A DNA stretch of 64,000 bases, counting the filler, from Dirinaria sp. TL-2023a (taxonomy: Eukaryota): NCBI GenBank assembly GCA_051941275.1. It is 5 parts of 5 records of this genome, joined end to end, with 100 filler letters (N's around TTAATTAATTAA, not from the genome) between each part and the next. Parts side by side here need not be neighbours in the genome. Positions count along the whole stretch, not along the records: positions 1 to 13,029 come from JAVEBF010000718.1; 4 more parts are not named here. One strand, written 5' to 3'. The stretch's first letter is position 1, and each line of letters opens with the position of its first letter. The notes under the pieces were generated by a model. It worked only from the letters and a program-made list of their open reading frames with translations, ran no database searches and was not told the DNA's origin. Position numbers and translations under genes: made by a program. Positions 1-52,486 of the stretch are shown piece by piece.

Positions 1-46
<46 letters not shown>
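1..46. terminator. poly(A) tract; T-run on the minus strand just downstream of the tRNA, likely Pol III terminator (also the window edge)
   Basis: About 46 A on +. On - the tRNA 3' end (69) is followed by CTAGTTTTCCTTTGCG... and then the long T tract. Confidence 0.6.
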
Positions 47-49
<3 letters not shown>

Positions 50-68
50 TTTCGCAAAGGAAAACTAG

Positions 69-228
69 GGGCTCAGCCGGGATTTGAACCCGGGGCCTGT
101 CACAATGAGGAGTGCTTAAGAGCACTCAGGCCGATGAAAACCCGAAGCGACAATCATACCACTGGATTGGAATTAGTTTACAATTTTTTTGGTCCAAGAA
201 TGTCTTCACCAACCTAGACCACTGAGCC
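69..228 (-). tRNA. tRNA-Pro-CGG: tRNA-Pro(CGG) with two intervening sequences (exons 228-214, 161-141, 104-69)
   Basis: Joined exons read GGCTCAG TG GTCT AG TGGTA TGAT T GTCGC TT CGG GT GTGAC AGGCC CCGGG TTCAAAT CCCGG CTGAGCC C. Perfect 7-bp acceptor stem, 5-bp anticodon stem (one G-U), T arm with B-box GGTTCAAATCC; matches the eukaryotic tRNA-Pro consensus. Canonical intron 140-105 (36 nt, after G37). Second insert 213-162 (52 nt) in the D-loop. Confidence 0.93.
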
Positions 229-577
229 GGATTTTAATTAGTGTTCTTATTAAAAAACATATTCAATTACGTATAATTCCGCTTACATAATATCAGAACC
301 CCTACGTTGATTTTCGCAGTCTGTGACTTCAGAAGCCAATAATACAAAATTTCATCGTGATGCAATAGCAGACTCAATTCCTGTGATGGCAGATGACACT
401 TTGTAAAGCTCAAGTCTCTGAGCATGTATCTTACTAATGCCAGCAAAGATACACACAAATTCAGCGTCCTCTCACTATTGTCTTTCACACCTGATACTGG
501 AAGTCACAAAGCCCGGAAACCCTTTGAACCAAAGGGCGAAGCAATATAACATGGCCTATAGTACGCATTGAGCTAGG

Positions 578-2395
578 ATGGATGAAGAGCAGTGGCCCGT
601 AGATGAGCTTAACCGCTGTCTTAGGACGCTTACAATCCTGTTCCCACGCATCCAGCCGGAGGTCTTCCGTGAACTGCTGCTGCCGTACATTGGACGCAGC
701 CAATTGGAGATCGTTACGGAATGGCTGCTAAAAGACCAAGACAAATACGTGAGAGGTCGCTGGAGACCGCCGGGTGGAACAGGCAATCCCGTTGGACAGA
801 GCTCAGAATTACGGGTCCCAAGGCAAGATGAGTTCAGAAGCGAGGGTTACAGGAAAGCAGTCAAGGCAGCGCTGCGCAAGGAGTTCAAAGGACTTAGCAA
901 GAGCTCTATAGACGCGGTACTGGCTGAGAAGAATCATTGTTATACCCTGGCCAGGCCCACGCTCCAGGAAATTGCTGCTAAAAGCTGGAGGTACAGCATT
1001 AGCACTTTCTTTGCCAGATGGAATAAGTACCCAAGAGCTGCCCAAGAGGAGCATCCTATGCTTATTAAAGTCAAAGAATCAGAGCAGACAACTCCAACTT
1101 TCAGGCTGAAAGAGAGCGGAAATGTTGAACTCGACCATGAGTTGTACTTGACCGTATTAGCGCCTGTCCTTGAGAAAGCTAGAACAACTCAGGCGGCTAT
1201 CGACTGGGAGCTTTCATTGTGTGTAAACGAGATGGAAGCCCAAGACGCACGAGCCTTCTATGAATGCGAGTGCTGCTTCTCCGACACCACTTTCGAACAG
1301 ATGGCTACCTGTACGGCTGGCAGCCACGTTATCTGCTTCCACTGTCTGCGCCATGCCGTCAATGAAGCCATATTCGGTCAAGGCTGGGGAAAGAACATCG
1401 ACCATGACCAAGCGCGAATTAAATGTATTGCCCCAACGGCTGGCGAGAGCTGCAATGGCTGCGTGCCCCAAGCAATCGTCAAGCGTGCTATCATCCAAGA
1501 CAAAGGCGGCCCAGATATCTGGAAAACGCTCGAAAACCGTCTGACCTCTGAAGCTCTCTTCAAGGCCCAAATCCCCCTGATTCACTGCCCGTTCTGCTCT
1601 TACGCCGAACTCGACGATCTCTACTTACCTCCATCGTTTATTAAGTACAAACTCAATCTCTCTCAACCGCTTACAACGCTCTTTCTCACCTTCTTAACCA
1701 TCAACTTTCTCCCTCTTCTCTTCCTTTACTCTCTGCTCTGCCACTATATCACAGCTTTCAAGCTCCCCACCCTTTCAGCCCTCATAGCAACCTCCCTAAT
1801 CCACCTCACGCGCCGCAAACACCTCTCTGCGCGCTTCCAATGCCGTTCCCCAAGCTGCTCGAAAGCGTCTTGCCTACACTGCCACAAGGAATGGCACGAC
1901 CCACATAAATGCTACGAATCCGCGACGCTCTCGCTGCGCACCACGATCGAAGCGGCGCGCACCGCGGCTCTGAAACGCACCTGTCCCCGCTGCGGGCTCG
2001 GCTTCATCAAAGAAAACGGCTGCAACAAGATGACCTGCGTCTGCGGCTACGTGATGTGCTACATCTGTCGGCAGGGCTTACTGGCGAAGGGTGCAGCAGC
2101 AGCAGGTCCTGAAGGGGTCCGAGGCGTCTACGAGCATTTCTGTCAGCATTTCCGACCCGCGGGAGGGGGACGTTGCGCGCAGTGCGAGAAGTGCGATCTG
2201 TATAAATCCGAGGACGAAGAGGGGGTGGTGAAGCGAGCTGGCGAGCTCGCTGAACGGGAATGGAGGGAGCGAGAGGGCATGGTGGGCGTTGGTGGCATTG
2301 GGGGTGGATTGGAGCAAGGAAATGCCTGGTGGGAGGAGCAGTGGACCGTGCAGGGGGTGGTGGATTGGTGGGTTCAAGGGCTGGTGACCTGTTGA
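578..2395 (+). CDS. RBR (RING-IBR-RING) E3 ubiquitin ligase, RNF216/TRIAD3-like
   Basis: 605-aa ORF. RING1 CECCF...HVICFHC...C; IBR CPFC...CRSPSC...CLHCHKEWH...C; RING2 KRTCPRCGLGFIKENGCNKMTCVCGYVMCYICR. Confidence 0.9.
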   Translation: MDEEQWPVDELNRCLRTLTILFPRIQPEVFRELLLPYIGRSQLEIVTEWLLKDQDKYVRGRWRPPGGTGNPVGQSSELRVPRQDEFRSEGYRKAVKAALRKEFKGLSKSSIDAVLAEKNHCYTLARPTLQEIAAKSWRYSISTFFARWNKYPRAAQEEHPMLIKVKESEQTTPTFRLKESGNVELDHELYLTVLAPVLEKARTTQAAIDWELSLCVNEMEAQDARAFYECECCFSDTTFEQMATCTAGSHVICFHCLRHAVNEAIFGQGWGKNIDHDQARIKCIAPTAGESCNGCVPQAIVKRAIIQDKGGPDIWKTLENRLTSEALFKAQIPLIHCPFCSYAELDDLYLPPSFIKYKLNLSQPLTTLFLTFLTINFLPLLFLYSLLCHYITAFKLPTLSALIATSLIHLTRRKHLSARFQCRSPSCSKASCLHCHKEWHDPHKCYESATLSLRTTIEAARTAALKRTCPRCGLGFIKENGCNKMTCVCGYVMCYICRQGLLAKGAAAAGPEGVRGVYEHFCQHFRPAGGGRCAQCEKCDLYKSEDEEGVVKRAGELAEREWREREGMVGVGGIGGGLEQGNAWWEEQWTVQGVVDWWVQGLVTC

Positions 2396-2811
2396 AGATT
2401 GAATATCGAGTATCGAATATCGCTTGCCAGTCACGAGCGTTGGCGTCTGGCGTTTGGGGGAGCAGGACTTATGGGGAGCGATGATACCACGGCCGGATGG
2501 GTTGGTATTAGAACTTGTGCCAGGAGCATATTGAAAAGCTATATCTTAAGGAATTCGGCTAACAGGCATAGACATTAGACTGATGCAAAGCTTTGCTGAA
2601 TTGGCAGCCAGCAACACTGCATTCGCATATGGGGTATAGAATACAAGCAAATGCCACCAGCCCACTCGTGCAAAGCTACATACCTACATGTAAATGACCC
2701 ACCAGCAGAAGCATCATACCGTAAACGCTACTCACTTTTCCTCGCAAGATCCCAATTCCAGAAACATACTTACAATACAACGCATTGCCATGTTGTTATT
2801 CATTGAATTCC

Positions 2812-4665
2812 TCACGACCGTTTACCTCGAATCACGTCCTCTGCACCTCTCTTCAGCCCGGTCAAATCCTTCTCCACCGCGTGAGTCTTGCTTCTGACCC
2901 GTTCCTCTCGCTGCGCGACTTCTTTCTCGATCCCTCGGGCCGCGTCTCGCTTCTCCCTCCTCGCATCTTTGTAGCGGTTAAGGAGACTGGCGAATTTCTC
3001 AAGGATGAGATCTCCAGTCTCTTCATACTGCTCAATGGACAAGCTGGCGAATACATTCCGGCGCTGCTCTTCTTTGTCCTTCAGTTGGTATACGTGATCG
3101 AGCTTATCAGCTAGAGAGGCTTGGGCCAGATCGCTCGGGAGCGCGGTACCAGACGGCTTGGGGATATGATCAAAGGACTCGCTGTTCAATAGCTTGTATG
3201 ACATCCCTGCAAGCTCTTCTCGGGTGTAGTCTAACTCTAATGAGCGCTTTCGAGGTTCTGCGATCCTTGGCTCTGCCTTGTTTGGTTGGGGGAGGATGGT
3301 CAACTTCGGCGCCGCGCCGCTGGTTTGATTGGTATAAGCATCCATCTGGGCTTGATTTTCAAGAGCGGCCGTTATTCCTCTATCCTGGACTGCATTTCCC
3401 CCTTCAATGGGGACTTCAGAGTCTAGCTTCAATGGATGAGCATCAACGGCTCCATGGTCCAGCTCTAGATCCGCTTTTCGCGTTCTGCGATTCATTGGTA
3501 TACCATGTACCCCGCTGTCCTTATCGGAAAATTTTCGATCTTCTTCATCGGAGGGTCGAAGCTGGTTCTTAGTCTCTGGCAATTCCTTATTCTTTTCCTT
3601 ATACTGGAGAGAGGGTTGCATTGGATTGACGACTTCTTGCCCAATGTTCTGTTTTGTCTGGACTGGGCTGGTAACAGATTGTCCACCGTCGTTTCCGATC
3701 TCTATCCGGTCAGGCCTCTGAGGAACCTTCCTTGACTGCTTCAGAAATGCTTTCTGCTCAGCGGTCAATGGCGGTCGTGATATTATTTCTGGATTGGCAA
3801 GAGCCACAGACTGCTTCAAACCCTTACGAGGAGTATCGACGACTGTAGACTGTATTGGCTGTTTCTGCTCATGTTGAGCAATCCTCACGGCCAAACTCTT
3901 TTGGGTCGTAGGAGAGTCTATGACGGACTTAATGATCTTTTCTCTTGTATTGGGCGTCTGAATGTTAACAGAGTATCCAGCATCCCACTCTTCAGTATCG
4001 AGACTTTCCTTCCGCTTCTTATTAGATCTATGCTGAATGTCGTTAACGTCACTACCGTGGTCTGTACTATCGTCGTCATCAGAATCCCCCTCGTTTATGT
4101 GGTTGGCATGACGAAGTGAGCCCCGAGAAGATTGCTGTCCGTCGTTGGGGGCACCGTCTACGCTCTCCTCATACTCGGACTGATCTGCGAAATATTCTTG
4201 TGTAATTGCCGCTCTGGCTTCGAGCTGGGAATCAAATGGCTGAGCAAAATCTACTCTGTCTATGTCACTGATGGTGGTCGTTCCATCGGCGTTTTCTATG
4301 TCGGTATCAAAGGGATCATAACCCTTTTCATTCTCTTGATACAAATGAGTATCGGCCTCAGCCCTACTGACAGGACGTGGGGGCGGTGGCATGGTGCCAT
4401 CGTGGGCCCTCGATGTCTTTACAGCCGCCTCAGGCGCGGGGCTCTCGCTACGTGACTGTCTCCAGGAAGCAGGCTTGATCCTTGCATCATTTGCAACTAA
4501 CTGTCGCCGGGAGACTTCTGGAGGAGCTTTCACTGCTGGGCTCCCGTAGATTGGGCTACGGCCATCCGCGTGAACCCAGCCATTTGCACGCCGAATCGCC
4601 AGCTGCCGAACCTCAGGGTCATCTTTTTCAGTAGTCCTGAAGACGAATTTTTCAACGCCAGACAT
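2812..4665 (-). CDS. ECM11 (extracellular mutant protein 11) C-terminal domain protein
   Basis: 617-aa single ORF with a disordered N-terminus. The C-terminus LDYTREELAGMSY...ESFDHIP...FASLSIEQYEETGDLILEKF plus a coiled coil resembles the fungal ECM11 domain. Confidence 0.7.
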   Translation of the reverse strand: MSGVEKFVFRTTEKDDPEVRQLAIRRANGWVHADGRSPIYGSPAVKAPPEVSRRQLVANDARIKPASWRQSRSESPAPEAAVKTSRAHDGTMPPPPRPVSRAEADTHLYQENEKGYDPFDTDIENADGTTTISDIDRVDFAQPFDSQLEARAAITQEYFADQSEYEESVDGAPNDGQQSSRGSLRHANHINEGDSDDDDSTDHGSDVNDIQHRSNKKRKESLDTEEWDAGYSVNIQTPNTREKIIKSVIDSPTTQKSLAVRIAQHEQKQPIQSTVVDTPRKGLKQSVALANPEIISRPPLTAEQKAFLKQSRKVPQRPDRIEIGNDGGQSVTSPVQTKQNIGQEVVNPMQPSLQYKEKNKELPETKNQLRPSDEEDRKFSDKDSGVHGIPMNRRTRKADLELDHGAVDAHPLKLDSEVPIEGGNAVQDRGITAALENQAQMDAYTNQTSGAAPKLTILPQPNKAEPRIAEPRKRSLELDYTREELAGMSYKLLNSESFDHIPKPSGTALPSDLAQASLADKLDHVYQLKDKEEQRRNVFASLSIEQYEETGDLILEKFASLLNRYKDARREKRDAARGIEKEVAQREERVRSKTHAVEKDLTGLKRGAEDVIRGKRS

Positions 4666-5241
4666 GTCTCAGAACAAGAGATATAACCTATTCGCGATGC
4701 AAGGATATCTTGTAGAACAGAGTAAGAATTTGGAAAAAGGGTTATTAGGAAATAAAGCTAGCTTTCAAGCTCGGCTTGATGATGGTAGTCTGATATAGTC
4801 GAGAGGCTCTGTGGCAGCGAAGAGGACCTACTATTCTTTCAGCATTCTTCATCAACGGCACCCAAATCGCTGTATAAGGCATCCATGCTTCTAGACATGG
4901 ACCTCCTAAGCTTGATGTGAGGAAGGAACAAGAGGTACCTGTTATTAGTGAAAGATTTAAAAGTCGAAGATTTACCTTAAGATATTTAGCAGACGCGAAG
5001 ACGCGTGAAGTTTTAAAACACCCGATTGGAACCCCTTGTTGTAAAATACCATCCCAGCCAAGCTACAACTCGAGGCCACGCATCCCTACTGTACCCTACC
5101 TATTTCTGTAGATTAGGCCCAAAACCTATTACATGTTCTTCTCGGGTCGGCATCTTTGCAAAGGACGTATCAGTGTCACACCCTGAAAAGCTTCATTACT
5201 CTCAACATTCTCATGAGTCCTGCTGACGCCAGTCGCTTCCA

Positions 5242-6299
5242 ATGGCCATGATGGCAAGTGCGTCGTCAGGCAACCCATATGACAATTACGACAACAGGGA
5301 AATCGAGCAAGACCTGATAGATCCGGACGACGGTACGTATTTTCGTGGACTGGAAAGACCAAACTAATTGCGTGATCGCTCAGCGAACATCAATGACCTC
5401 GACGATCCTCTACAATCTAACTCAGATCGAGCCCCTTTGACAGGCAACATTCAATCCTCTTCGTCGCGGAACCCTATCTCCCAATCTTACCTTAACTCAT
5501 CAATACCGGGCGAAGATCGTCGCGCGCCAACCAACACCATAGATGAGTCGGTATGGGACACTTTGTCCAGAGATCTTTTGGCGGTGTGGGAAAAGATGAG
5601 ACAAGTGCTATGGCCGAAATACTTACTCGGGGGCATGCTGCAACGCGGTGGAGGCATAGGTGGCGCTGAGCGAGGAGAAGGAGACAGTTTAGCGGGAGGA
5701 GGCCTCAGAGGGTTCGTTGGTAGATGGCCTGATGCGGACGACGTTCTACAGGGCGGTATGAGCGAAGGACTAAGGGACTGGGATCTATGGTTAGACCACC
5801 AATGATGTCTTGTGGCAGTTGAAACTCTTGCTAAACATCTCGGCAGGGGTCCACTGATCTTCTGTCTGCTTCTCAGCTTACTTCTATCGATGACGGCTTC
5901 GAGTGAGCAGAAGACGATAGTCTTTTCGGGCGTCTTCGCCCTCGTATGGATAGGCGAAGCCGTGGTGACAATGCAAATCAAGCTGTTGGGCGGGAACATG
6001 TAAGTGTGGTAGTTGCGTTCCGAGTGCATGACGCTGATGGCTGCTATAGCTCCTTCTTTCAGTCCGTCTGCATTATCGGGTACACCCTATTCCCGCTTGT
6101 CATCGCCGCCCTATTAAGCGCCGTACACCTTCTTACCATTGCTCGTATCCCGATATACCTCGTCCTTATTGCTTGGTCTTTAGCTGCCGGTATTAGCATT
6201 CTCGGCGGCTCAGGCGTAGTGAAGAATCGTGTTGGCATTGCAGTATACCCCTTATTTGTATTCTACCTTGGGCTGGGATGTCTGTGCTTTATAAGCTGA
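5242..6299 (+). CDS. Yip1-domain Golgi membrane protein (Yip4/YIPF6-like), 4 exons
   Basis: Motifs NTIDESVWDTLSRDL, LRDWDLWGPLIFCL, FFQSVCIIGYTLFP, AVYPLFVFY. Introns about 5333-5383, 5790-5847 and 6000-6049 have GT/AG ends and branch sites. Confidence 0.88.
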
Positions 6300-7109
6300 A
6301 ACAATGTACTTCGATGATTTTCCGATAGAGTCAGTTTAGCAAACGCAAGAGAACCCCAGAGTTTTTTCGGTGCAGGCGAAAAGAAGCATGGCGCAGTCCA
6401 AGTTTCAAATTGAGCCTGATGAATAAATATCACGTGTAATTTTGAAAGGGGTGAGGTGTACCTTAATCACCCGAGTCAGCTACCCTCCTACCTACCTTAG
6501 GTACCTTAGGTATTGCTCTGGTGAAAGCTTGGCGGCTACGTATGCTACGTATGAGCCTTTATCGTTTGCGGCTTGTGTACTTTACCTACTTCTGCTACTA
6601 CTAGCAGTAGCACTCCATTTCTCCACTCGCAGATCGCGGACTATGCCATCAGCCCATCTCTACTATGATCCACTCTATCCTTCTCAGGAATCTATGCTGT
6701 GATCCCTCTACAAGGACTTCCTGTTTCCGATCTGCATCCTCGTCTTGACATCATCACCTTCCAAGCAAGGATCTTGTACTCTGACTGCAACCAACCGGCT
6801 ATTTGCAGAATCTTCCAATTTCAACTTGAAACTCGGGGAAAGCAGTCAATCACACCAACTGAAACAAGATCTGCTTGTGCTTCCAGACTGCTCAGCGAAG
6901 ATTGCATCTGGCCGTCAATCGGCTTGTGGTACTGCTATCTCTAGGCGTTGACTCGCTACTTCTGCTCGTGGGATGGCGGCATGAATGCGGGCACTTGCAC
7001 ATTCCATACACCGATCCAGCCTCGACTACGCATCTAGTTTCGTGTTTCCTCCTTTGCCCGACCTCCATCAGGTATTATCGGTCCCCCTTCCCTGAACCAA
7101 ACGTTCGCC

Positions 7110-9143
7110 ATGGAAGATCCAGAGCAACCCCAGAATAGTGTCATGCCGGACAGTCTACAGTCGCCGTCCTCAAATGAAGGTTTCCAAACCTCGCCAACCC
7201 AGTTGCCAGTCGTCAACTCGAGCGAAGACCAGGTTAGCGACAACGAAACTAGTGAAGGCCCGGTCCGTGAAAAGCTCAAGAAAACCTCGATAGCCTCTAT
7301 ACCACGACAGAGTGAGCTAAATCAGCATACCGGAGACAGGACAGGAGAACCATCGCCGTCTATTGCCCAAGTTCTGGATAACCCTACGTCTACCATTCAA
7401 GAAGCGGCTACACAACTCCGTGGGCGGCCAACAAGGAAGCGATCGTTCGATGAAACGGGGACTGAAAAGACCGCACATGCTCATAATCAGCCAGAGGCTA
7501 GTATTCTAAGTGGACGAGAACGAAAGAGGTCGAAGGAAGTAAGTTCCACCAGGAGTTTCAGCGTAAAAGATCAGGAGCAGAAGCCAGCCTCGTTTCCTGT
7601 CTTAGAAGATGCGGTACAGCCCGCACAAGCTGCTGAGTCTGGTAATGAAGCCCCTCAAGTAAGCGAAAGATCAGAAGAGAACGAAGAACTTGTCAGCTCA
7701 GCTTCGGTCCATCCAAATTCAACGGATCAAGAAATGCAGGATTCAGTGTTCAGCCCACGTAAGAAACGGAGTAGGGATCAATGGGACGCAGAATTGCAGA
7801 GAGAGCAGAAAATAATTGCTACAGAAGAGTCCAAAGCGCACAGGCGGTCAGAAGAGCATGAGAGACAGAAAGATACTAGATCTGAGGGGGAAGAAGCCGC
7901 GCGTACAGTATCGGGCACCAATATGCCTGGAGATGATGTAGTTTCAGGCTCTGTGAAGGTATATCCAGCACCGTGTTCATCCGTCAACCTTGCTTCAGTA
8001 CTCATGCTGCCGCAGAATGGTACAGACGCTGCTCCGGATAGTGCTCCAACAACCGCTCCAGCCACCAGCTCTGTAGATACACAATCCACAGTCAAGCCTT
8101 CATCTGCACGCGAAAATAGCTCTACACGTCCGGATTCAAAGGCCTTGGGATATGATTTCTCCAACTCCGCATTTGGAGCCTTTTCAAAATCCTCCGTGTC
8201 GCCTTTCGCGATTGGGTCTTCTACAGGAAATGGACTGAGAACTTTTGCTTCCCCAACACCGTCTAACCTCGTGGAGACCGCGCCAGCTGGGCAGACACAG
8301 GAGGGCTCTAGGCAACTTTCAAGCAATGGTTTTCCAGGTAACAGTATGCCAGCCGGCCCAGGAACCAAGGGTGAAGGACTTTTTTCATTGTTCGGCGGAG
8401 GCGGAAGCAGCAACTCGAACGGCACAGCCTTTGGTGCCCCAAGCCCATTCGCAAAACCTTTGGGGGCACCCAAGCTCACATCCTTTGCTAACCCCACAGG
8501 AGGAAACAATACCTTCGGAACGGGTGGGCCAATTAAGCCTATAGGTGATGCGAAGGATAGTGACGATGAGAAGAGTGGAAGCGAAGGTGAAGGGCAAGCC
8601 AGTAAAGAGTTTGAAGCAGACGAAGAGGAAACAGATCCTCGTTTCCAATATCAAGAAAGTAAGTCGCTCCGTACCGGCTTCTAACCCCCATGCTCTAACC
8701 GAAATAGTGGACACCGGTGAGGAAGGCGAAGATCCAGTCTTCACATGTGGCCGAGCAAAGCTCTACGGCTGGGAAGGCAAATGGAAAGAGCGTGGAACGG
8801 GCATTCTCAAGTTCAACGTGTCGACGTCGTTGCAAGAAGGTCCTGATGGACCGCAGAGAAAAGCGCGCTTCATCATGCGAGCCCATCAAACCTACCGGGT
8901 CTTACTCAACAGCCCAGTCTTCAAGGAGATGAAGATTGGCGATCTTAAAGGCAACGAGCCGGCGAAGAAACAAGTATCTATAGCCGTCATAGAGGATGGC
9001 AAGCCGACGCCTTACCTTATAAATGTAACTCCACAGTATTCAACAGCCTTTCAAAGCATCAGCTAACTCTCTTCCAGCTTACCAGTGAAATTGAAGCCCA
9101 GACGCTCTATCGAGAAGTGAAGAAAATGCAGGAGCAACTTTAG
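7110..9143 (+). CDS. Ran-binding (RanBD1) domain protein / nucleoporin (Yrb2/Nup50/NUP56-like)
   Basis: Disordered N-terminus with FG-like motifs. C-terminal VDTGEEGEDPVF..RAKLY..WKERGTG..ARFIMRAHQTYRVLLN is a RanBD. Introns about 7959-8015 (in-frame, no stop), 8659-8708, 9024-9077. Confidence 0.85.
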
Positions 9144-10850
9144 GGGTCGGCTACCGTTGGTTATCGCTCCTCAACACACAGTCGTCGACTTCACGCCGGT
9201 CGTGCCGTCTCCCAGGGCTGAAACCAACAACATCTTCTTTCGAGGCGGATCAGCACTATTGCTGCTGCGAGTCGGTCATGTTCAGGATGTCTCTGTGTTG
9301 CACGTGTGTGTAACCGCGTATTAGCGGTAGTAGGGACGGTGCCTCATGGATTGATCCCCCGGATGTCACGGCATTTCCGGTCTGCGCGATGGATATGTCA
9401 TCTGATGCTTGATGGGGTTCTGAGGGCAACAAGCTTGCGTGGATATGGCCGGGACGAAGACATCGAGATTCTAGATATTGTAGCGGGCCACAGTACAGCA
9501 CTATTTCGGGTATCACCACCAGCGATTGATTTTTTGAAGGATTCGCCACGCAGGCCTAGAGTCTGCATCCGCTTAGCGGTGCGGCAGTCGTCCGTCACAA
9601 GATGAATGTAGCTTTGCAATAGAGTTCGGTACGTCTATGGCAACGTGTTCGTGTTGATTGTCGGCTCCAGCAAGGGAATCCAGTGACTTCAAGGTCTGGG
9701 ATTCACCCAGGAAGGCTTGGACAGGGCAAGTATGGCACTGGGTCGTGGCCGGTGTGCCTCCATGCATAGTGATCGATGATTCGTCGTTTCATGTCTACAG
9801 TGTATTCGATAACTCGACATGCTCATGTTTGGTGGGAATGGAGAATTCGCCTCCCCGGCCACCCACCCCTGAACTCCGAACTCCGAGCCGTCCATTCCAT
9901 GTAGCACATCAATTTTACTTTATAGTAAGCGCTATTGCATTCCATTACTCAAACTCCCCAAGGTCCCACACTCCCACTTGACTGCTTCATAATGTTTGCT
10001 GATGTTTGCTTTCGCTCGTCGTCATTCCCACGGGGGTCGGGAGTGGGGGAAACGATAATCAAGGAGGGCGTCGATTGGATGAAAAATCTCCGTTTCTGTT
10101 CCTGTTCCCTGTCAAGCCTGTCTTGGATCTTCACCAGTGGCCCGATTGAGCTGCCAGATTCTGCAGGCAGTAAGTGGTACTAGTAGTGCAGTCAGACCAT
10201 CTACATACTTTATGAGGTACCTTATGGCCACCCTTGCCACATCCGCCTGACGCCTCTCGGCTTGACCATCCCACTCCCCCTAGATACGTCGATCCCGTTG
10301 GTGCCTTCCCGGATTAAGGATTCGCGGCATTGGCCGGCCAGCTTTTCGACACGACGAAATATCTGACTGACGATACATGCTGCATCTGGTTTCGTTCACG
10401 GCTCGATACCTTTCTGCTTCGGTTCTTGATCCAATAGTCCGCTTTGGCACCACGAGGCCTCGTCGTACCTGGCAACTCCACTTCATGTCAGGGGAAAGCT
10501 TGTATCGATCGTGCCCACACATTGGGCACGACCTCATCACATCACATTGTTCGGCGCAACTGGCTTCCGGCATGGCTGGCCTGTGGCGGTATCTCGTATG
10601 GCCTTCGTCTCCTTGTGTTCTACAGAATCGTCTATTCTTGAATATACTTCTCGGTACTCGCTCGTTACTTTATTATGAAGGAGGGAGTCGCTATCTCCAG
10701 CGTCCGCCGAGAGACCTTGATGTCTTTGACGACGGATCTGGGGAAACCGCTCCCTCCTCAACATCTCTCCTATAATCTCTCTTCTCGACTTTTAAGCCCA
10801 AGCTGTGGTAAGATACGGGTTGCTTTAGAGGACGTGAGAGCCCATTGAAG

Positions 10851-12350
10851 ATGCCTGGTGGCTTTTCGCCTCCTCTGTCGGTCGTACAAAGCTGGCCCAA
10901 GCCGAACTACACAAACCCGGAAACGAGAGGCAATGCTCTGGTTATCTGTCTAGCTGTCTTTCTCGTCCTCGCCTTGCTCGCTCTAGCTGCTCGAATCTGG
11001 GCTCGTTTCGTCCTCTTAAAGTCACCTGGACTGGATGACTGGCTGGCAATATCGGCGGCTCCGCCTACTATCGGCCTCACTGTTGCCGTTATCTTAGGTT
11101 GATGCCAGCATATATGATGGATTGGACATGGTTAACAATGTTCCAGCAGCGGAGAAGTACAACTACAATCGCCATATATGGGACGTCAAACTGGATGCGC
11201 TGGCTCCAATGAGCAAGGTAATCACGCCACAGCCAAGCATTGCTTCTCCAGCTCGTTGACCTTCTTCGTGTGTGTGATATACAGAACGCCTGGATAGCGC
11301 AATTCTTCTTCGTTATCAGCACCTGCTTGATTAAAGTCTCAATTCTTCTCTTCAATCGCCGCATCGCAGCCGGAACGGACAGCCGGTTATTCTCCTGTGT
11401 CGTGTGGGGTGCTATTGGCGTGATCATCGCATATGCAATTGCCTTCTTGGCTGTTCTCTTCGCCCAATGCCAGCCTCTCAACTCATACTGGCTACGCTTT
11501 TCACCTACATACCACGGAACTTACCACTGCCCGAGCAAAGAAGCCACTAGCTTGCCTATATCAGCTTACTTGAGCGTTACGACCGACTTTCTCGCCCTAT
11601 TGCTGCCGTTCTGGCTGGTATGGAACATCAATCTGCCGAGGAGACAAAAGTGGTCGTTGTACGCCATTTTTGGTCTTGGCTTAGTGTAAGTAATGATTTC
11701 TCCCCAAAAAACGCATTCATGGGTCGTCGACAGTTCATAATAATAAAACTGGCCTTTTCCACAGCGTAATCCAGGCAGGCATCCTTCGTTCCATCTACCT
11801 CTACCAAATGTTCCACACTACCTACGACGTGACATGGATCGGGTACTTGGAATGGATATGGACGGCGATCGAGAACGACCTCGCGCTCATCGCCGCCAGT
11901 GCGCCGGCCTTACGACCTATCTTCCGCCGTTACTACCCGTCAGAAAGTAACCCCGGCCATCCCCACCGCCATGCACGGTCTCGCAAATCCTATCGCCGCT
12001 CTTCAGCGGAGGACTCTTACACCCTCCGCCCCGCACGCAAAGGCCACTTTCCCGGCACAAGGGACTCGGCCGCCCAGATCCAGGTTCGAGATGCCGAGCA
12101 AGAGACCAGGCCGACGCTGCCGATCCAGAGTGGCCAAGAGCAGGAGCTAGCCGTTATGGAGAGCCGTATCGGGAGCTTACTGTCGCGTAGTAGCGCGTCC
12201 AAGAGGGGCGGGATGGTGTGGGATGTTGGGGAGGGTAGCCATTGGGATGATGGAAAGAGCGGCACGTTGTGGAACAGTGAGGCGGAGAGCGAGGCGACGG
12301 AGCGGGATGGGAGAGAGTACGCGTGGCCGTTACCGGGGAAAATGATTTGA
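10851..12350 (+). CDS. PTH11-like (fungal rhodopsin-domain) integral membrane protein
   Basis: WPKPNYTNPETRG, ARIWAR..GLDDW, CLIKVSILLF.RRI, QCQP, TDFLALLLP, W..IENDLALIAASAPALRP. Three introns. Confidence 0.88.
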
Positions 12351-13029
12351 AAAATTTTTACGATAGAGGAAAAGAAAAGAAATGGGATGGGAGGGCGGCA
12401 GGTACATTTGAAGCGCAGGAGCTCGGAGTACTACAAACTCTCTATACATGTCATCGTAGTTCGGAAGTTTTTCAAAAGCTATATGCATATATATGTATAC
12501 TTTACTTGTAACATGTAAAATTCAAATAAGGAAACTCCGTGTCCTCTGGTACGAAGTACCCGTTGTGCTTTGTTGTTCAATCGTACCCATACTCGCTCGC
12601 CTAAAGCAGGCACGAGAAAACGACTAAAGTAGGTAGGTAGGTAGGTAAAAGTCGGGCAGAATTTTATCTATATCAAGCATCGAAAATCTCAAAAAAAAAG
12701 TTGGGGAAGTTGTTTCTCTTACATTATGATATATGATTATATATATATATATACTCTCACCTGCTGCACTCTTCTTTCTCTTTCCCTTGCCTTTGCGCAT
12801 TGAAATTTAAAATCTAAATAAGGGATCATGAAGGAAACTTCGAAATACGATCGATCGTTTTTTTTTTCTGATATTTTTCTTGGTCTAGAAACTCTAGTAA
12901 GTGATAAGGAAGGAAGGGAATTTATATATTAGTGCGGGGGCTCTGGTTTCGTGCGATTGTTGGTTGTTGGTTGTTTTCGAAAGTTTGGAGGGTGGATGAT
13001 GGGGAGGAGAGGAGAGGAGAGGATAAGGA

Positions 13030-13129
13030 NNNNNNNNNNNNNNNNNNNNNNNNNNNNNNNNNNNNNNNNNNNNTTAATTAATTAANNNNNNNNNNNNNNN
13101 NNNNNNNNNNNNNNNNNNNNNNNNNNNNN
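13030..13129. other. artificial contig-joining linker (N44-TTAATTAATTAA-N44)
   Basis: Exact 100-bp pattern with a six-frame stop core, repeated identically four times in the window. Confidence 0.97.
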
Positions 13130-26151: not shown

Positions 26152-26251
26152 NNNNNNNNNNNNNNNNNNNNNNNNNNNNNNNNNNNNNNNNNNNNTTAAT
26201 TAATTAANNNNNNNNNNNNNNNNNNNNNNNNNNNNNNNNNNNNNNNNNNNN
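26152..26251. other. artificial contig-joining linker
   Basis: N44-TTAATTAATTAA-N44. Confidence 0.97.
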
Positions 26252-39270: not shown

Positions 39271-39370
39271 NNNNNNNNNNNNNNNNNNNNNNNNNNNNNN
39301 NNNNNNNNNNNNNNTTAATTAATTAANNNNNNNNNNNNNNNNNNNNNNNNNNNNNNNNNNNNNNNNNNNN
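39271..39370. other. artificial contig-joining linker
   Basis: N44-TTAATTAATTAA-N44. Confidence 0.97.
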
Positions 39371-52386: not shown

Positions 52387-52486
52387 NNNNNNNNNNNNNN
52401 NNNNNNNNNNNNNNNNNNNNNNNNNNNNNNTTAATTAATTAANNNNNNNNNNNNNNNNNNNNNNNNNNNNNNNNNNNNNNNNNNNN
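52387..52486. other. artificial contig-joining linker
   Basis: N44-TTAATTAATTAA-N44. Confidence 0.97.

Follow-up and report, generated by a model that had tools for sequence, protein, structure and literature searches.

Can a spliceosomal intron reside in the gene of a transfer RNA (tRNA), and can such a gene still supply a functional tRNA? This question is raised by a tRNA-Pro(CGG) gene near one end of a 64-kb stretch of DNA of Dirinaria sp. TL-2023a (in the following: the window, i.e. the whole stretch), the D-loop of which is interrupted by 52 nucleotides (nt) with the ends and the size of a messenger RNA (mRNA) intron. On the basis of the anatomy of the gene and of its comparison with 22 related genes, we consider it very probable that the insert is removed by the spliceosome from a functional gene. 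It is likely, with somewhat less certainty, that we are dealing with a working nuclear tRNA-Pro(CGG) gene of a lichen-forming lecanoromycete, which carries a U2-type spliceosomal intron between tRNA positions 15 and 16 and is read into an RNA polymerase III (Pol III) transcript.

The interrupted gene and its two introns

The preliminary description of this DNA had placed a 52-nt interruption between G15 and U16 of a tRNA-Pro(CGG), and we located it at 213..162 on the minus strand with the letters as quoted. The signals that had been named are all present: the insert starts with GTTGGT, contains CTAAT near its end (with the branch A 11 nt from that end), ends with CAG and follows an exonic AG. 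The gene and its surroundings are composed as follows (positions in the window):

69..228, minus strand: tRNA-Pro(CGG) gene, from G1 (228) to the discriminator C73 (69); made up of three exons, which sum to 72 nt, and two introns, as given by ARAGORN after excision of 213..162
214..228, minus strand: exon 1, tRNA positions 1-15, i.e. the acceptor 5' strand, U8, G9, the D-stem 5' strand, A14 and G15; it includes the first half of the A-box region
162..213, minus strand: 52-nt intron of spliceosomal type in the D-loop, between tRNA positions 15 and 16
208..213, minus strand: 5' splice-site hexamer GTTGGT; the identical hexamer is found at the D-loop site of one of the related loci described below (L001)
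172..176, minus strand: branch-site motif CTAAT; its A at 173, 11 nt before the intron ends, is the presumed branch point
162..164, minus strand: 3' splice site CAG
141..161, minus strand: exon 2, tRNA positions 16-37, with the anticodon CGG at 144..142
105..140, minus strand: canonical 36-nt tRNA intron at 37/38, as placed by ARAGORN
69..104, minus strand: exon 3, tRNA positions 38-73, with the B-box region at 90..80
61..64, minus strand: TTTT, the first T-run, 4 nt past the gene; candidate Pol III terminator
1..46, minus strand: T-run of at least 46 nt that is truncated by the end of the contig; if real, a certain Pol III stop

The exonic letters that directly precede the insert are CTAG. 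When the 52 nt were cut out by script, ARAGORN called the remainder as tRNA-Pro(cgg) with a complete cloverleaf and a 36-nt intron at 37/38, in agreement with the undamaged cloverleaf that had been claimed. As the insert ends with AG and is also preceded by AG, the excision point may be shifted 1 or 2 nt to the left without a change in the product; the ends GT..AG are obtained only in the register listed above. Removal of the 36-nt intron at 37/38 presumably falls to the tRNA splicing endonuclease. In the third exon, a stretch that we take to match the B-box motif is intact at 90..80.

The frequency of such signals was counted in the window itself. Among 126,688 52-mers (both strands) 488 have the ends GT..AG (0.39%), and 18 combine these ends with a CTRAY motif 8-16 nt from the end (0.014%). 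The mRNA introns of the host were approached with RNA contigs (three runs from one sample, a relative that is ~95% identical), which were aligned on window positions 47-13029. This yielded eight joints, six of which resolve to GT..AG within 3 nt: five introns on the plus strand, of 64, 57, 50, 57 and 49 nt, and one on the minus strand, of 83 nt; the other two joints did not resolve and have one extra letter between the sides in each. The 5' sites of the RNA-supported introns are loose (GTACGC, GTTAGA, GTAAGT, GTATAT), and branch-like motifs, read off the sequences, lie 9-12 nt from the 3' end. The 5' site of the tRNA insert, GTTGGT, has the G at +5 and unusual letters at +3 and +4. The insert had been described as having the size of mRNA introns and, with 52 nt, it indeed lies within the range of the five plus-strand introns (49-64 nt); since the RNA-supported introns match in size as well as in signals, the insert resembles the mRNA introns of its host in both.

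With respect to folding, at window positions 221-190 (minus strand) of the minimum free energy (MFE) fold the exon letters 8-15 and the first intron G form 9 base pairs with an internal segment of the intron, so that the 5' splice site is hidden in this fold. A similar pairing of exon 1 with the intron is found in the MFE folds of several relatives. ARAGORN also gives an alternative perfect D-stem that is made with intron letters (AGAC).

Related genes with an insert at the same site

A search for tRNA halves split by GT-AG inserts had been proposed in the preliminary description. We scanned metagenome contigs with a pattern in which 8 fixed exon letters precede a gap of 40-70 nt and 16 more follow it; the ends of the insert were left unconstrained. 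The scan returned 23 loci, in 22 of which a tRNA-Pro(AGG) or tRNA-Pro(CGG) gene is interrupted by 44-67 nt at this D-loop site; the remaining one (L011) is a false positive, i.e. an uninterrupted tRNA-Pro(TGG) gene with a chance copy of the 8-mer upstream. All 23 D-loop inserts (that of the window and those of the 22 loci) start with GT, one of them (L023) after a shift of the register by 1 nt to the left, which leaves the product unchanged; 22 end with AG, and in 20 a branch A lies 10-14 nt from the 3' end, within CTAAC, CTAAT, CTGAC or TTAAC. The 5' sites in the relatives comprise GTAAGN, GTGAGN, GTATGC, GTTAGT, GTACGN and others.

The inserts were clustered at an identity of at least 70% with strict gap costs (at 60% identity all group together), which gave 12 sequence-unrelated clusters. 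Counted by cluster, GT starts the insert in 12/12 and AG ends it in 11/12 (binomial P against 1/16: 4e-15 and 6e-13, respectively). The identity between clusters is at random level (0.52, as compared to 0.46 with one partner shuffled). Orthologous inserts that do not conserve the splice signals had been named as an outcome that would speak against a spliceosomal intron, and what was found is that the signals are kept in all lineages for GT and in all but one for AG. Splice signals that are held while the remaining sequence is free are, as far as can be judged from comparison, the classic footprint of spliceosomal introns.

The D-loop is not the only place of interruption. An additional GT..AG intron, of 48-53 nt, is present in 12 loci of five lineages, at the following tRNA positions:

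53/54, T-loop, splitting the B-box region: L001
50/51, T-stem: L002, L018, L020, L021 and L022
51/52, T-stem: L003 and L017
69/70, acceptor stem (3' strand): L006 and L008
71/72, acceptor stem (3' strand): L005 and L013

Each of these 12 extra introns contains CTAAT or CTGAC, the A of which is 10-12 nt away from the intron end. The acceptor stem of L006/L008 and of L005/L013 pairs only once the extra intron is removed, and the last exon of L005 consists of just 2 nt of the mature tRNA plus the trailer. The trailers that precede the first run of five or more T's are longer in L006/L008 (+38) and L005/L013 (+15) than in most others, which would suit the need for a 3' exon, in what is a small sample. 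We found no sign of intron duplication, as the identity between the D-loop intron and the extra intron within a gene (0.51-0.62) is matched by the shuffle maxima (0.51-0.63).

Two other origins of the insert were considered. As to an introner or other repeat, the window and the 23 loci contain no further copy of the 52 nt, and the identity between lineages is about that of shuffled sequence. A self-splicing intron of group I or II does not fit, as 52 nt is far too short and no match to an Rfam intron family was obtained at E ≤ 10 over positions 1-600.

Whether the genes yield an intact product was evaluated on the script-spliced sequences. ARAGORN gave a full-length tRNA in 22/22 complete genes (i.e. 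leaving out L012, which ends at a contig edge, and the uninterrupted L011). The product was typed as Pro in 20 of the 22; L009 was typed as Asp and L014 as Thr, because in these ARAGORN sets the 37/38 intron at a different place. The stems were compared in 13 representatives. In the acceptor stem 6/7 pairs vary, on both sides (pair 3, for instance, is T-A vs C-G between L004 and L010), and a single non-pair, an A-C in L007, occurs in 91 cells; the anticodon stem and the T stem have no non-pairs in 65 cells each, which amounts to 1/221 over the three stems. Judged by the cloverleaf and the Pro anticodon that appear after excision, and by stems that are kept through compensatory change, the tRNA-Pro gene is very probably functional. 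The intron at 37/38 is present in 13/13 representatives as well, with a length of 15-39 nt. An A6-C67 acceptor mismatch is common to three related contigs with a tRNA-Pro(AGG) gene (L007, L014 and L019), and their D-loop introns differ despite the kept mismatch (83% identity for L007 vs L019).

The genomic neighbourhood connects the window gene to two of the other groups of loci. The neighbour gene in the window encodes an E3 ligase of the RBR/IBR type (open reading frame 578-2395, Pfam IBR), and the best named relatives of this protein, at 51-55% identity, are those of Stereocaulon, Toensbergia, Lecanora, Xylographa and Schaereria; Stereocaulon belongs to the Lecanoromycetes (taxonomy look-up). 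In L006/L008 and in L003/L017 a tRNA-Pro(CGG) gene likewise lies directly upstream of the RBR E3-ligase gene (tblastx). The RBR protein of L006 is 66% identical to that of the window; that of L003 is 44-46% identical to the lecanoromycete set and has its nearest named relatives in Endocarpon pusillum (55%), Capronia coronata (53%) and Exophiala (49-51%), of which Endocarpon is placed in the Eurotiomycetes, Chaetothyriomycetidae (taxonomy look-up). Lecanoromycetes and Eurotiomycetes have therefore both kept tRNA-Pro(CGG) next to the 5' side of the RBR gene. The two genes are divergent in the window and in L006/L008 and in tandem in L003/L017, and hence the tRNA gene was inverted in one line. 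An alignment (A1) shows no variation in the exons and poor agreement between the D-loop introns, which are 52, 67 and 51 nt long. For the 37/38 intron (window 140-105; columns 138-172 of A1), the similarity among the CGG orthologues (window, L006/L008 and L003) is clearly above that of the D-loop intron, which suggests a structural constraint on the former.

The AGG genes of L004, L005, L010 and L013 adjoin a gene for a flavin monooxygenase, which has its nearest named relatives in Neophaeococcomyces (77%) and Lithohypha (75%); Neophaeococcomyces belongs to the Chaetothyriales (taxonomy look-up). The D-loop intron is thus common to two classes of the Pezizomycotina and to two isoacceptors (AGG and CGG). 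The simplest reading would be a single old gain of the D-loop intron, possibly with spread between paralogues by gene conversion.

That tRNA finders would miss or mis-call the gene had been anticipated, and this was borne out. ARAGORN reports no gene at the window locus by default and, when introns are allowed, a false tRNA-Met(cat) with an 85-nt intron. Rfam gives no match at the gathering score in the window and no match to the tRNA family at E ≤ 10 over positions 1-600. Among the relatives, the Rfam tRNA model recovers 0/13 interrupted genes at E ≤ 1, and it does find the uninterrupted gene of L011 (48.4 bits). The sole tRNA-like signal of Rfam is a weak match to mascRNA-menRNA (19.5 bits, E 0.26), which covers the 3' half of the gene at window positions 70-132 on the minus strand. 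No other tRNA genes were found in the window or in the flanks of the 23 loci. If tRNA-Pro genes appear to be absent from the annotations of lichen fungi and black yeasts, introns of this kind would be the explanation.

Some further observations concern the window and its annotation. It consists of contigs of ~13 kb that are joined at 13030-13129, 26152-26251, 39271-39370 and 52387-52486, by spacers of 44 N, a 12-nt linker with stops in all frames and another 44 N. The tRNA gene lies 68 nt from the end of a contig of 13,029 bp, where the T46 run is cut. In the RBR/IBR gene (355-2395, plus strand) the RNA contigs reveal an intron at 561-624; as the ATG at 578 of the long open reading frame falls inside this intron, the start of the gene is probably in the upstream exon 355-560.

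Proposed route to the mature tRNA and rival explanations

The reading that we favour implies the following route. Pol III would transcribe a precursor of ~200 nt with two unrelated introns, in which U1 and U2 would recognise GTTGGT and the CTAAT branch site. The 52-nt intron would leave as a lariat, by which G15 is joined to U16, and only after this removal by the spliceosome could the D-arm and the elbow of the tRNA form. The 36-nt intron would be excised by the tRNA endonuclease and sealed by ligase, and RNase P, RNase Z and CCA addition would complete the tRNA. The spliceosome as the agent of excision, the polymerase and the sequence in which the two introns leave are inferred; the need for the spliceosome next to the tRNA endonuclease and ligase, which had been put forward earlier, is supported by the comparative evidence.

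The same spliceosomal intron could also be part of an RNA polymerase II (Pol II) precursor that is spliced like an mRNA or a long non-coding RNA (lncRNA), and from which RNase P and RNase Z release the tRNA. Such a precursor would agree with the interruption of the A-box region (and, in L001, of the B-box region), with the usual partnership of spliceosomes and Pol II, and with the location of the tRNA gene ~130-350 nt upstream of the transcribed region of the RBR gene. It is at odds with the B box of the window gene, which is intact, and with the distribution of T-runs: a run of at least four T's starts within ~40 nt downstream in 13/13 representatives, and such runs are missing from all 17 lineage-representative introns, in comparison to 10/36 intron-like controls. 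Moreover, since tRNA gene and RBR gene point away from each other in the window and in L006/L008 and follow one another in tandem in L003/L017, there is no conserved host transcript. We therefore regard a Pol II precursor as unlikely. Given the conserved downstream T-runs, the introns without runs of four T's and the change in orientation of the tRNA gene with respect to its neighbour, the evidence leans to Pol III, and transcription by this polymerase is the most likely on the sequences at hand. TFIIIC tolerates a wide spacing between A and B box. Upstream TATA elements aid tRNA transcription in some fungi, according to the sections of PMC3978253 that deal with this.

The insert might instead be a non-canonical tRNA intron that the tRNA splicing endonuclease cuts at a bulge-helix-bulge (BHB) motif, as is the case in archaea and in some eukaryotes: introns of the D-loop and the T-arm, with junctions that form BHB motifs, are known from the tRNAs of Cyanidioschyzon merolae, nucleomorphs and prasinophyte algae (sections of PMC3978253). 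The insert of the window gene is situated at 15/16 and not at 37/38, a position that is taken only by the separate 36-nt intron. The MFE folds of the 17 distinct sequences of D-arm plus intron share no arrangement that has both junctions in 3-nt bulges around a 4-bp helix, and the D-stem is set off from the 5' junction by no more than two exon nucleotides. The GT, the AG and the branch motif at a fixed distance, found in 11 or 12 of the 12 lineages, would be left unexplained, and the occurrence of the same signals at six different tRNA positions is hard to reconcile with an endonuclease that is guided by structure. We consider removal of this kind very improbable. Smaller still is, in our view, the probability that a dead tRNA gene (a pseudogene or a tRNA-derived repeat) was hit by a chance insertion and delivers no functional tRNA. 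The failure of the Rfam tRNA model and of default ARAGORN to recognise the locus, the loss of the AG in L009 and the position of the gene at a contig end, beside a long homopolymer, would fit a dead gene. The argument against decay that was made from the restored cloverleaf holds, and it is strengthened by the presence of gene and insert in syntenic orthologues of two classes and by the compensatory changes that hold the stems, with only the one non-pair in 221 cells; in addition, GT..AG with a branch motif arises by chance in 0.014% of 52-mers, and there is no other copy of the intron in the window or the loci. As far as the sequences allow, the pseudogene reading is excluded for the gene family, with the qualification that L009 may be a decaying copy.

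Several points weigh against spliceosomal removal from a Pol III transcript, as we propose it. The split of the A-box region, and of the B-box region by the second intron of L001, is awkward for a Pol III gene that is driven by TFIIIC, and the usual substrates of spliceosomes are capped Pol II transcripts. The statistic for T-runs is modest (runs of four or more A's occur in 3/17 representative introns, and the absence of any run of four T's is reached in 2.6% of shuffles), and its control set is defined by pattern and not verified by RNA. GTTGGT is a weak match to the GTAAGT and GTGAGT forms that are commoner among the relatives. L006 and L008 are without CTRAY at the usual distance, and by eye only a CTAAA, 9 nt from the end, can be recognised. 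The insert of L009 is GT..GG and has no well-placed branch motif, so at least one copy breaks the splice-signal rule or decays; it may be a decaying copy or have a non-canonical 3' site. The RNA-contig pieces listed begin at 355 and do not reach the tRNA gene. Finally, the data consist of contigs, and uninterrupted copies of tRNA-Pro(CGG) or tRNA-Pro(AGG) may be present elsewhere in these genomes. As for the locus L009 itself (3001-3078, minus strand of the locus), it holds a tRNA-Pro(AGG) gene in which the insert starts with GTAAGA and the tRNA body and the T5 terminator are intact.

A broader proposition, to which we lean with some reserve, is that spliceosomal introns are regular, ancient and still spreading in the tRNA genes of Lecanoromycetes and Chaetothyriomycetidae. 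The 15/16 intron would then predate the split of the classes and have been followed by at least five later gains in the T-arm and the acceptor stem, and tRNA-Pro would need the spliceosome in addition to RNase P, RNase Z and the tRNA endonuclease with its ligase, all on one Pol III transcript.

Relation to other introns outside mRNA

The preliminary description was not familiar with spliceosomal introns in tRNA genes. In line with this, we found no earlier report of a spliceosomal or mRNA-type intron in a tRNA gene in the full-text literature searched (subscription journals lie mostly outside it). The relevant sections of two accounts of introns in ribosomal DNA (rDNA) and small nuclear RNA (snRNA) genes mention no tRNA case (PMC8527467, PMC5855946), non-canonical introns of eukaryotic tRNAs are described as BHB-dependent in the corresponding section of PMC3978253, and a paper from 2025 presents, in the part that concerns this, the intron classes as unrelated and the spliceosomal introns as those of Pol II transcripts (PMC12530127).

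If the reading is correct, tRNA would be the fourth class of host for spliceosomal introns, after mRNA/lncRNA, snRNA and ribosomal RNA (rRNA), and the spliceosome could be required for the biogenesis of a tRNA. The capacity for translation would be tied to spliceosome activity, in analogy to an argument that exists for the rDNA introns of slow-growing, stress-tolerant lichen fungi. The genes would also offer a compact natural substrate for splicing without a cap and without the carboxy-terminal domain of Pol II, with a 5' exon of 15 nt or, in L005, a 3' exon that has 2 nt of mature tRNA, and a natural series of intron gains into a structured RNA, by which the reverse-splicing model would be open to test. 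As the affected groups include the well-studied and culturable Chaetothyriales, the prediction is directly testable.

Spliceosomal introns outside mRNA have been described in the genes for U6 (a Pol III transcript), U2, U5 and U1 snRNA and in rRNA genes (sections of PMC5855946), and the mRNA-type intron of U6 snRNA, for example in Schizosaccharomyces pombe (Tani and Ohshima 1989, 1991, cited in PMC5855946), bears several likenesses to the present one. Both introns are short, have GT..AG ends and a branch site, and lie within a conserved functional region of a small, structured fungal non-coding RNA gene of Pol III type; reverse splicing is the proposed origin. The host differs in that a tRNA is not part of the spliceosome, and closeness to the catalytic centre therefore cannot explain the gain of the tRNA intron. 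The tRNA gene also holds a second class of intron, at 37/38, and has its internal promoter region split; and the splicing of U6 has been demonstrated by experiment, whereas the tRNA intron is known here from sequence.

The rDNA of lichen-forming and other ascomycetes contains spliceosomal introns too (Bhattacharya et al. 2000, cited in PMC8527467 and PMC5855946), and yeast removes such a lichen intron from an rRNA transcript of RNA polymerase I (Pol I), as reported in the section of PMC8527467 on this subject. These introns occur in the same groups of fungi and are likewise short and GT..AG, ectopic in the gene of a structural RNA that is not transcribed by Pol II, found at several positions with a lineage-specific distribution, and accompanied by a second class of intron (group I in the rDNA, tRNA-type here). 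The differences lie in the host, which is multi-copy rDNA read by Pol I on the one hand and a tRNA of ~72 nt, for which we propose Pol III, on the other, and in the 5' exon, which has here only 15 nt plus the leader.

Among the tRNA introns proper, the BHB introns and permuted tRNA genes of Cyanidioschyzon merolae, nucleomorphs and green algae are, in the sections of the literature concerned, similarly nuclear and located in the D-loop, the T-arm and other sites than 37/38, several introns per gene are possible, and standard tRNA finders miss them (PMC3978253). According to the same source they are cut by the endonuclease and lack GT..AG or branch signals, whereas these signals are conserved in the genes described here and no BHB is found. 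The canonical tRNA intron at 37/38 is found in the window gene as well, and the 52-nt insert is set apart from it by its 15/16 site, its spliceosomal signals and the size of an mRNA intron. Taken together, these comparisons support the view that the insert belongs with the ectopic spliceosomal introns, with tRNA as a putative new host in which they would be old, conserved and recurrent.

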